DNA from: Leucoraja ocellata
Taxonomy: Eukaryota
Length of the DNA: 64,000 nucleotides
Assembly: GCA_036785375.1 (NCBI GenBank)
Contig: JAWMAR010000029.1
Location: 5,704,001 to 5,768,000, forward strand
Direction of reading: 5' to 3'
Shown: positions 10,846-59,455 of the stretch, piece by piece
How positions within the stretch are numbered: position 1 is the first letter of the stretch
Layout of the letters: each line of letters begins with the position of its first letter
The notes under the pieces: generated by a model
What the model was told of the DNA's origin: nothing
What the model saw: the letters and a program-made list of their open reading frames with translations, nothing else
The model's database searches: none
Program-made: the position numbers and the translations under genes

Positions 10846-11154
<309 letters not shown>

Positions 11155-18157: not shown

Positions 18158-18357
18158 NNNNNNNNNNNNNNNNNNNNNNNNNNNNNNNNNNNNNNNNNNN
18201 NNNNNNNNNNNNNNNNNNNNNNNNNNNNNNNNNNNNNNNNNNNNNNNNNNNNNNNNNNNNNNNNNNNNNNNNNNNNNNNNNNNNNNNNNNNNNNNNNNNN
18301 NNNNNNNNNNNNNNNNNNNNNNNNNNNNNNNNNNNNNNNNNNNNNNNNNNNNNNNNN
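18158..18357. other. Assembly gap (200 N)
   Basis: Run of exactly 200 n. The round length suggests a placeholder for a gap of unknown size. Confidence 0.99.
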
Positions 18358-55092: not shown

Positions 55093-58000
55093 ATGTTAGC
55101 AGGAGAGGTTTTGTAAACGGGAACAGTATTCCCGGGAATGTAGAAGATTAAGATGTGATATGATTGAAGATGTCAAGATATTAAAGGAAATTATCAATGT
55201 CAATAGTGGGAAATCAACTGCACTGGCAGGATAGTCCAAGCTTAGAAGAACTTGGCCTTGAAGAAATTGGGGTTTGGTCTTTGAGAGCGCAGGATAGTTG
55301 TAGGTTGGAACTCTGCAATTGTGACTAAACTAATCACTTTAAATGTGTGATTACCAAAGATATCAAGGAAATTGAAGCAGAGGCAGCTGGATCTGTGGAA
55401 TAAGATCAAATATGATTTCAGTGAATGGTGGAGCTGACTCTGTGCCAAATACTCTACTATTGCTGTGCTTCTAACTACTTCTGCATTGCTGACAGTTGCA
55501 CCTGTGACTGGGTTAAGAACTATGGAATGGAGATAACCCCAAGCGTCCCTAAAGATAGGTGGATTACAATTATGCAAGATTGGACAATAAGTATGCACAA
55601 TATGCGGTGACTTGTAATATTACTCAATCATTAGATTGTCTAGAAATTGAAACCGTAGCAATTTTGAATTGCAAGTCTATCAAATTACTTTTGCTGAATT
55701 ATATCACCACCCAGCTAATCGTTGGGCTCCTTCTTTATTGCAATCAATGATTGACAGTCCAAGAATTTGTTCACTTTGAAGCTGGCGTCAATGCTTTTGT
55801 TATATTTTTCTTTTAAGTGTAAGGGAAATTAATGGTCCTAACCTCAGTCATGTAATAACGTCTGCAAATTCATCAGTCAATGAAATTGTAGTCGTGAATT
55901 GGGATTGCAACATAATGTAATGCAATGTCAATGGAACTTCATTTTGATACCCAGCTGTGCTAAAATGATTTGAGACTTTTTAGGGAATTGGTGGATTAAT
56001 TTTTTTCTCAGTGTATGAATTGTAATCCATTTTACTGCTTACTATCCTTGAATATAATTTGTATTTAGTACAAAAGAATCCTGTTTAGAAATTACTAATA
56101 GTTTTAATATTAAAACAATCTGTAAGTAGCATTAGAATACATTCTCTTCTGAATTAAAAAAAATATATAATCTGCATAATAATGTGCAGAATGTTGCCTT
56201 TATGTATGTATCTTTGTAGAATCAAGTCACCGTAGGCATATTAATCATAAGGTTAATATATTTGTAATAACATGAGTTGTTGGGTAAAGTGTTTGCTGAT
56301 TGTGTTTGACATTAAGCTCACGTACTTTAAAATGCACAGTTTATTGTAGCTGTAAAAATACTAATATGTGATCTGATTTAAAACACTGTTTTGATATTAC
56401 AGTAAAAGCCGAACAAGTCTTTGTCATTAAGTGTGGCACGCACTGATTTAGTGAGAGATACATTGTATAATAGCTCATCTTTGACATTTTGTGAAGAAAG
56501 GCACTGTGCAAGGACAGATGTTAATGGAATTCAAAGGAAGTGAATGTGAAATAGAGCAGAAAGGCACCACACATTGATTAAATGAGGGAGAGCAAGCAAC
56601 GACCTCTGACCGGCATTGAAGGGCCACTTTGATTTTTTTTGAACACCACAATGTATTTTCTAATTCACTACTTAATATCTTAAGCACATCTTAGCTGTCA
56701 GGTTTAAGGAGAATTCAGCTTCCTACCCCAAATGGTTAGAACTGAGCACGCACAATTTGATATGTGGATAGCAAGACTCATCCATTTGAAATCATTCCTG
56801 CGCCATTAACATTTAACAGACAGAAGAAACTAATGCAAAGCATAATTAATGCCCAAATGTGGTATGATTGAGATCAGATTAAGACAACCTTTTGAGTTTC
56901 TGAGTAGAGATTACCAGATACGGCTGAGTAGTTGAACCTCGCTATTTATTCCAGTGAAGCAATTGATGTTTTTGATACCCCAAGCAGCTTAGCACAGCTC
57001 AACTCGCACTTCACTGAATATAGTGATCGATTATCTGTGGCTTAACCAAGCCTTCTCATTTCCTGTTTTCCATTACCTCGCTCAATCAAGTTAGGCATTT
57101 GTAACCATGTTTGTGCATTGAGATAAGCAATCGAGGCTTGTTGCTATTTGCTAATCTCTTGCAGATGGTGCTGCTGTGAGATAAGACGATCCTGTTTAAA
57201 AGATGCACTTTATTGTGTTGTCCTGGGCAGAATAAATGAAACACGGTGCATTATGTTGGGAGCATGCTTGTTGTGGAAATGGCCTTCAATTTTTTTTTAA
57301 AAAAGTACTTGTGCTGCTGGTGGGATTATAATATACATGGTCACACAATACATAACATCTCTCATAAATAGGTATGAGCGCAGCACACAACCATCGCCTG
57401 ATGAAAAGTCCTATTTACTGCACAGTATTGATCTTACATTTATGACCTATTTTAGAAATGCAGTACCTGGGCAGTTTTCACCGTGCAATAATTCAGGAGT
57501 TACTGGCTTGTGCATTAATGTTGCAGCGTTCTGTTTTTGTTGGACTGTATAGACCAATTTCAAGGCTATTAAAAATGTATGGAGTTAAATAATGCATCCC
57601 CAAACAATAATCAGTCTTTTCACAACATTTTGGGCAGGTTTTTGATTAAATCTGCTTTATGGGCAGCATGGAACTATTTTTTTTTACAAGATGGTGAAAT
57701 CCCAGGAAATTGTACAGTAGATTATGGCCAGTTTTTGATATGGAAGCTTTATCAGCCCAGTTTTTTTTTTTGATAACTGGTATGAAAAAATGCCAGCTGG
57801 TTATAACATACAAACAAGCCACGTGATTGAGAATATTCTTCAACTTTAAAACATTTCTCGTGATTTAAGTAAGTGTTGCGTATATATTTATACTTAAGAA
57901 AATAGGGGCATTAAACAAGGCGATAAATCAGAATATTTAAAAAATATGCAGCTTCAACACTATTTTTCCAAAATGAATTTAACACATTAAAATTATCTTT

Positions 58001-58407
58001 CACCACATTTATAATTTTCCTATCTTTTCACTGAGAAATGTTAGCTATGAATTGTTCCACAATTCTATCCAAGTGAGCTTTACAAGGAGCATTAGAACTC
58101 TACATTTATTTAGAGATGTAACACACACATTCTAGGAACCACTTAAACGGCAATAAATAAATATTTCGTGAACACGCTAATGCTTAATTCTTTGGTGCCA
58201 TAATTTAAAACAAAAATTGGTTAGGGCTCTTTCATTGAGTTGCTTTAATATATATTTTGTTTTTCCTGTGCAGTTTGTTGAACCATCTTCTTTCCCTTAA
58301 TCTAATATTCACTGTTAATTGTACTTTTCTATCTTGTTCTCTGTCTACCTTTTACTAACGTTCTCTTTGCTGCTGCTGCTTCATCCATTGTACATTCTTC
58401 ATTTTAG

Positions 58408-58422
58408 AAATGCCAGGAGTCT
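58408..58422 (+). CDS. RERE: Candidate 15-nt alternative microexon of RERE (AAATGCCAGGAGTCT = KCQES)
   Basis: TACTAAC branch point at 58353-58359, pyrimidine tract with (TGC)4, no AG between 58274 and 58405, acceptor ttttAG (58406-58407), donor GTAAGT (58423-58428). Length is 3n, stop-free and phase 0, matching the upstream exon. Confidence 0.6.
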
Positions 58423-58979
58423 GTAAGTTTTACCTTTTAACATCCTTACAAATGTATGAATGAGGAGAAGGAGAAAGACAGGCAACCCCATGAACTGAAG
58501 GCGTCTGAAAGGTAGAAAAACTGTGGATGTATGGGGAAGGAGCCGTGAGGGTGGATGGATTGTGCGGCTTTTTGAAAGACCGAATCGAGACCCTGGATTG
58601 AATAGCCCCTCTCATTGTTGAACTATTTTATAATTCTATGACTCGATCATTTTGCCCATGATGAGATATTGCAATTTTCATGGTTGCATTGAAGAATAAT
58701 ATCACTTTAGAAAGGTGGTTCCCTGCGAGATCTGTCACATTGTATGCTGTGATGGTGTTCATCACTACGACAAGAATTCTAATGAACATTCCGAGCAAAT
58801 AGTGGACCTCACACAGTTGGGAAAGTTTAGAGAAATGAAGGAAACATCTCGAAGCCTGCAGTTTCCCAGCCATTTTTCTCTATACCGAACACCTGATCAA
58901 GGATGAAATTATATATGCTGGAAGGTGGTTACACAAAAAAGCTGGAGAGAGGAGGTTGTGAAACTGTCTCCAGAGAGAA

Positions 58980-59035
58980 GTGGCTGGAAGGTGTGGCTGG
59001 AAGTAAAAGTGGCTGGAAGTATGCTGGAAGGTGTA
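58980..59035 (+). repeat. Short degenerate tandem repeat of gctggaag units
   Basis: gtggctggaaggtgtggctggaagtaaaagtggctggaagtatgctggaaggtg, plus one more unit near 58917. Confidence 0.7.
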
Positions 59036-59121
59036 TGTGTAATAATAGTTGTGAAAGCAGATTTGAACCTCATTACACGACTGAGATTGCATTTGCTGGT
59101 CAGTTGCATCCTTTTGACCAC

Positions 59122-59455
59122 AAGACATAGGAGTAGGATTAGGTCATTTGGAGCATTGAGTCTGCTCCGTCATTAGATCATGGCAGATCTATCTTTCCCT
59201 CTCAATCTCATTCTCCTCCCCGTAATCTTTGACACCCTTACTAATCAAGAACCTATTAATTTCAGCTTTACAAATATCCAATACACAGCTGCCTGTGAAT
59301 GAATTCCACAGATTCACCACCCTCTGGCTAAAGAAATTCTGCCTCATCTCCATTCTAAAGGCATGTAATTTTATTCTGAGGCTGTGCCATCTTGACCTGA
59401 ACTCTCCCACTACTGGAAACATCCTTTCCACATCCACCCTATCTGGGTCTTTCAT
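59122..59455 (-). mobile_element. CR1 3' end. Similar CR1 remnants at about 6975-7350(+), 7595-7700(+), 10680-10890(-), 19370-19532(-, ORF1 end), 22030-22560(-), 40150-41075(+), 44530-45010(-), 54480-54920(+) and 59820-59960(-)
   Basis: DRVDVERMFPVVGE...FRMEMRQNFFSQRVVNLWNS and equivalent motifs. Confidence 0.75.

Follow-up and report, generated by a model that had tools for sequence, protein, structure and literature searches.

SRRM3/4-dependent neural microexons are 3–27 nt long and usually frame-keeping; strong conservation between shark and mammals is described for the exon as well as for the intron around it (10.1101/2024.09.17.613571). The median distance of their branch points is given as 45–47 nt in PMC12871342. 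UGC motifs are reported between branch point and AG in 74–79% of SRRM3/4 targets; their position matters, and UGCs added to minigenes just 3' of the branch point are reported to have mostly reduced the response to SRRM4 (10.1101/2024.09.17.613571). For NOVA, PMC11701043 describes binding of YCAY upstream of an exon as promoting skipping. According to PMC10760453, large genomes commonly contain exon-like sequences that have good signals and no conservation.

A candidate 15-nt exon in an intron of RERE was compared with these systems. It is most probably (roughly 0.7) an unconstrained pseudo-microexon, that is, a chance look-alike of splice signals. Since most of the element is missing from one related organism (D) and the branch point from two others (F and G), it is likely to be a chance look-alike and at most a young, species-limited exon.

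The RERE locus and the splice signals of the candidate

The window (the whole analysed stretch of 64,000 nt, G000:C29:5704001-5768000, within a 3.44-Gb genome) lies in RERE, and the candidate element is located in a 67.5-kb intron of this elasmobranch gene (67,470 nt), 47.3 kb from its 5' end and 20.2 kb from its 3' end. The downstream RERE exon is found beyond the window at C29:5782601-5782706 and starts in phase 0 at G000:C29:5782601. The upstream exon and the signals around the candidate are as follows.

11060-11130, + strand: upstream RERE coding exon at the start of the BAH domain, 71 nt, ending in phase 0, donor GTGAGC
58274-58405, + strand: AG-exclusion zone of 132 nt, 74% C/T over its last 47 nt
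58295-58322, + strand: three weaker and more distant branch-point-like YTRAY motifs, at 58297, 58302 and 58315
58353-58359, + strand: consensus branch point TACTAAC, branch A 50 nt 5' of the exon
58368-58379, + strand: (TGC)4, UGC-like motifs with first bases 40, 37, 34 and 31 nt 5' of the exon
58381-58402, + strand: three YCAY motifs in the pyrimidine tract, starting at 58381, 58385 and 58399
58406-58407, + strand: candidate acceptor AG (TAG), read from sequence
58408-58422, + strand: candidate 15-nt exon, phase 0 and stop-free, translated as KCQES
58423-58428, + strand: candidate donor GTAAGT, the exonic TCT departing from the MAG consensus

The translation of the upstream exon is identical to elasmobranch RERE residues 101–124 at 24/24 positions (sharks, rays and chimaera). 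The sequence-only reading had assigned the locus to RERE and proposed that the exon would fit its frame, and both points are borne out by this identity and by the phases of the flanking exons. Because both of these are phase 0, the 15-nt form and the possible 6-nt variant (ES) opened by an internal CAG at 58414-58416 would each keep the frame. All the signals named in that reading (TACTAAC, the AG-free zone, (TGC)4, YCAY, KCQES and GTAAGT) were likewise found in place.

The junction at which the five residues would be inserted is inside the BAH domain (PF01426, residues 96–231); it aligns to MTA1 without a gap, and one residue is inserted nearby in the plant BAH protein SHL. Among the models listed, the upstream exon ends in EFKL in cartilaginous fishes and in DFKL in bony vertebrates. 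An AlphaFold model of Callorhinchus RERE 1-412 sets the junction between strands 115–124 and 130–137, and was dropped as evidence (mean pLDDT 36.7, residues 124–129 below 50). The same intron also contains a 200-N assembly gap at 18158-18357 of the window.

In size, frame and signals the candidate resembles SRRM3/4 microexons: it is 15 nt long and frame-keeping, its strong branch point lies 50 nt off, its AG-free zone is long, UGC is present between branch point and AG, and the donor is GTAAGT. It is unlike them in that it is unconserved even among species 2–6% apart, that its UGCs adjoin the branch point at 31–40 nt from the exon, and that no inclusion was found in three RNA-like contig sets of unspecified tissue. 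As the conservation feature fails, the candidate was not classed as an SRRM3/4 microexon; the branch-point distance fits the SRRM4-type layout that had been proposed for it. The sequence-only reading had pointed to NOVA as a binder of YCAY; for upstream YCAY, PMC11701043 describes skipping and not inclusion. Unlike in NOVA-activated exons, which have a downstream YCAY cluster, all three clustered motifs are upstream, and none was present within 58423-58460 downstream of the candidate. RNA folding showed the stretch from branch point to AG to be no more open than its surroundings (unpaired 0.59 vs 0.57). A genome search for a repeat origin of the element, which skips common words, returned a single match, the element itself.

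The main alternative, to which we give clearly less weight although it is a serious contender, is that this is a young, lineage-restricted microexon whose splicing in this species is real and probably neuronal. In that case five residues would be added to the BAH hairpin through the action of SRRM3/4 at the UGC repeats. The rare and complete layout of signals, a branch-point distance typical of neural microexons, and UGC in the interval that it occupies in most SRRM3/4 targets all speak for such an exon. Its UGCs, on the other hand, sit just where the minigene additions are reported to have lowered the SRRM4 response, and its upstream YCAY would favour skipping.

Frequency of the arrangement

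How often such an arrangement arises was evaluated by scanning 264 kb (the window and the adjoining 200 kb), with criteria that were fixed only after the site was known. The strict class consisted of TACTAAC, an AG-free zone of at least 50 nt, a pyrimidine tract, a GTRAG donor and an exon of 3–51 nt. It was found once in sense, at the candidate site, and not in antisense, and once in 40 local Markov shuffles, i.e. 0.025 per 264 kb; a relaxed class occurred in shuffles at 0.175 per 264 kb. Throughout the genome the pattern TACTAAC-N35-55-TAG-N15-GTAAGT gave 32 matches vs 85 for the reversed control, many of them apparently in repeats, and among the 30 of the 32 that were inspected only the candidate site had an AG-free spacer. 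Some features are ordinary when taken singly: at least three YCAY motifs are present in 4.6% of the 48-nt stretches of the window, which also holds 21 AG-free runs of at least 100 nt, one of them being the 200-N gap.

By a rough estimate, a few to a few tens of look-alikes are to be expected by chance in the introns of this genome, and the odds of a real exon, judged from the motifs alone, therefore lie perhaps between even and 5:1. The layout is nonetheless rarer than chance usually gives and the 50-nt branch-point distance is microexon-like, both of which count against the pseudo-microexon reading.

The scans returned further sites. A clustered repeat family (G000:C471, C1182, C3093 and C128; L045-L052 and L055-L063) accounts for 19 of the 32 pattern matches; its copies all have TACTAAC about 60–70 nt 5' of GTAAGT, and they could belong to genes in tandem or represent the unit of a repeat. 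Further down RERE, at G000:C29 ~5836005 (L020), a short exon-like site with a 93-nt AG-free zone and a YTRAC branch point has two possible donors that would give 28 or 32 nt, both frame-shifting. The sole metagenome-contig match to a degenerate pattern of exon and splice sites (L034) was rejected as chance, being a purine-rich, coding-like stretch with no pyrimidine tract.

Conservation in related species

DNA-like contigs of four runs (X15, X16, X17 and X19, organisms D, E, F and G, respectively) were aligned on 57400-59400 of the window. Organism E was identical to the window over 57400-58975; its run is therefore not independent and adds nothing. The contig of organism D differed at 26 of 1,125 aligned letters (2.3%) and jumps from 58048 to 58419.

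58049-58418, + strand: 370-nt stretch missing in organism D, with 3 letters in its place

Organism D consequently has neither the branch point, the pyrimidine tract, the acceptor nor 11 of the 15 exon bases, as read from one contig at depth 3.8; contig depth was 0 across 58070-58404, and about 12 further letters are gone within 58419-58471. Joining of the two gap edges through microhomology was considered and set aside, as the coordinates give no simple fit.

Divergence from the window was 4.6% in organism F and 5.8% in organism G. Both have 10 nt missing at 58351, by which TACTAAC is gone, and about 3 more letters missing within 58338-58404. As most differences are common to the two organisms, these changes were counted as one event. 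No deletion crosses the weaker branch-point motifs at 58295-58322 in either, and the exon-length sequence is undeleted, with certainty in organism G and likely in F. The exon may be intact in both, given that the listing of their substitutions leaves out 111 rows and has no entries for 58001-58527, which covers the exon, the AG and the GT. Over 57838-58927 the substitution rate was 5.2–5.5%, with no dip relative to 57400-57837 (2.7% in X17), although this is a weak test.

At the local indel rate the neutral chance of an indel on a given 7-mer is about 6–9%, and two independent breaks of a 150-nt element can be compatible with a neutral stretch. Breaks in such close species are hard to square with a highly conserved class of microexons. 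The sequence-only reading had proposed a functional, tissue-regulated microexon and had looked to conservation of the exon and its splice signals as a check. Such conservation did not hold in organisms D, F and G, and the proposed function finds no support, the element being broken in these three relatives and its peptide present in no RERE protein examined. Against the pseudo-microexon reading, the loss in organism D is seen in one contig at low depth and the changes in F and G are one event.

The same alignments bear on a young exon. On that reading the 10 nt with TACTAAC would have been gained in the lineage of the window, or lost in F and G, and would have supplied the AG-free pyrimidine tract with its strong branch point; a recent gain, too, would leave F and G without the branch point. 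A 9-nt stretch at 57860, absent in D, F and G, appears to have been gained in the window lineage as well. Organism D, the nearest relative examined, is without the element and has no sequence at the 10 nt, so the direction of the change, gain or loss, is not set by it. A specific form of this scenario, a microexon at birth in which a 10-nt insertion made the branch point in front of an already existing AG-15 nt-GTAAGT and SRRM3/4 then brought about neuronal inclusion, appears rather improbable.

Less probable still is an ancient neural microexon, dependent on SRRM3/4 and conserved in cartilaginous fishes or in vertebrates, that was missed by annotation and lost only in organism D. The signal layout would suit it, and F and G keep exon-length sequence together with the distant branch-point-like motifs. 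One lineage is, however, without the acceptor and another without the best branch point, in a class for which strong conservation between shark and mammals is described (10.1101/2024.09.17.613571). Short inserts are also missing from the proteins of many vertebrate groups, as detailed below. No RERE microexon was found described in the literature searched, where one circular-RNA review surfaced, and the word RERE is absent from the main texts of PMC12871342 and PMC11701043.

Two other segments nearby differ in kind. About 106–108 nt at 58914-59035 of the window are passed over by contigs from organisms D and F. The depth there spikes as is typical of a repeat, and this segment is probably a recent insertion in the window lineage. 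The stretch 59140-59400 is a very high-copy repeat, with thousands of contigs per run and copies elsewhere in the analysed DNA.

Transcripts

A search of sequencing runs with the upstream exon found no holder recorded as RNA; it gave 14 runs judged to be RNA, 6 unlabelled runs with the full exon and one raw-read RNA run. The analysis covered contigs of 3 of the 14 and 4 of the 6, together with the raw-read run. The alignments of the RNA-like contigs X7, X11 and X13 end exactly at 11130. In organisms A, B and C, i.e. in all three RNA-like contig sets, the upstream exon was present without a difference and 11130 was joined straight to the next exon; the tissue of these sets is unspecified, and assembled contigs lose minor isoforms. 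In X21, the raw-read run, about 6% of the data yielded just 2 reads of the upstream exon; this is not enough to look for loose ends and speaks neither for nor against inclusion. A young exon draws no support from three RNA-like contig sets, nor does it from the RERE proteins described next.

Inserts in RERE proteins

A total of 513 proteins was assembled from homology searches (the best 120 of 501, 480 and 194 matches) and from clusters (at most 15 members each). Both exons are spanned by 334 of these, and 225 of the 334 have no insert at the junction. Inserts of 12 residues or fewer were observed in none of the 334 junction-spanning proteins, which come from many vertebrate groups, and neither KCQE nor CQES is present in any of the 513. 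Among proteins with the shark/ray-type EFKL ending, 49 of 57 are without an insert and none has one of 12 residues or fewer. Nor was an insert found in the "isoform X1" models of elasmobranchs (0/11), namely those of Heterodontus, Scyliorhinus (two), Carcharodon, Pristiophorus, Mobula (two), Hemitrygon, Hypanus, Amblyraja and Leucoraja. Exons of 15 nt can escape gene models, and absence from the proteins is for that reason only moderate evidence.

Longer inserts are found at the same junction in particular lineages: 42 residues in mammals, 21 in lacertids, 19 in the caecilian Rhinatrema, 22 in two species of Chiloscyllium and 16 in Narcine. Many other inserts have V as their first residue and resemble read-through of an intron in the gene prediction. 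The junction tolerates insertions, as had been supposed from the mammalian insert, but the KCQES form is absent from the record. This repeated gain of inserts of 16–42 residues favours a young exon. The candidate shares with the lineage-specific inserts its intron, its phase and its location within the BAH domain, and is unlike them in that those are longer and present in gene models; KCQES resembles none of them. A search of the intron of this species for the known inserts gave no convincing match (best tblastn E 0.006 over 12 residues). Differences of 5 residues in the length of RERE models (e.g. 1520 vs 1515) were C-terminal in the 4 pairs checked, away from the junction. Copies in relatives were also sought via the antisense open frame over the exon, and the one protein-representative match was of low complexity and discarded.

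Three observations concern the other inserts of this region. In a model from the coelacanth Latimeria (P0305), 40 residues are inserted at this junction, and they align with the 42-residue mammalian insert of pig (P0092) at a score of 70, reached by 0 of 2000 shuffles; either the 42-residue exon long predates the mammals or the Latimeria model was projected from a mammalian protein. A second junction about 35 residues on has 15-residue inserts in Heterodontus and Pristiophorus and one of 71 residues in skates. Across these two adjacent BAH-domain introns, unrelated lineage-specific inserts have been gained many times (P0063, P0122, P0146, P0148, P0150, P0072 and P0106).

Interpretation

The closest fit for the candidate is with the unconserved pseudoexons, or "autonomous" intronic exons, as PMC10760453 describes them: it has good signals, lies in a long intron, is unconserved and is unseen in the spliced transcripts of the three RNA-like contig sets. 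It differs from them in being of microexon size, at which autonomous splicing would not be expected, and in the unusual perfection of its branch point. Under the pseudo-microexon reading, it is by chance that an AT- and pyrimidine-rich stretch combines a branch point with an acceptor AG and with a GTAAGT donor 15 nt further on. An exon of 15 nt is described as too short for ordinary exon definition and as needing the help of SRRM3/4 (10.1101/2024.09.17.613571, PMC12871342), and the flanking exons would therefore be joined directly by default. Default skipping would agree with the direct join in the three contig sets of unspecified tissue. The candidate would then be skipped, or used at noise level, and would drift; we infer from this that it is skipped in every tissue and has no function. 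Occasional inclusion would leave the frame intact and lengthen the protein by five residues at a place where other lineages carry 16–42, so there would presumably be little selection to remove the candidate, and selection to keep it appears to be absent as well.

On this most likely reading the element itself matters little: all the signals of a microexon can occur together in a long intron and be free of constraint, which is a caution for calling exons from sequence alone. At the RERE junction where it lies, several vertebrate lineages have each acquired inserts of their own. If the candidate were instead a young exon, these species, 2–6% apart, would provide a natural before-and-after series for the origin of a neural microexon, with alleles that have the branch point, that are without it, and that have the acceptor deleted.
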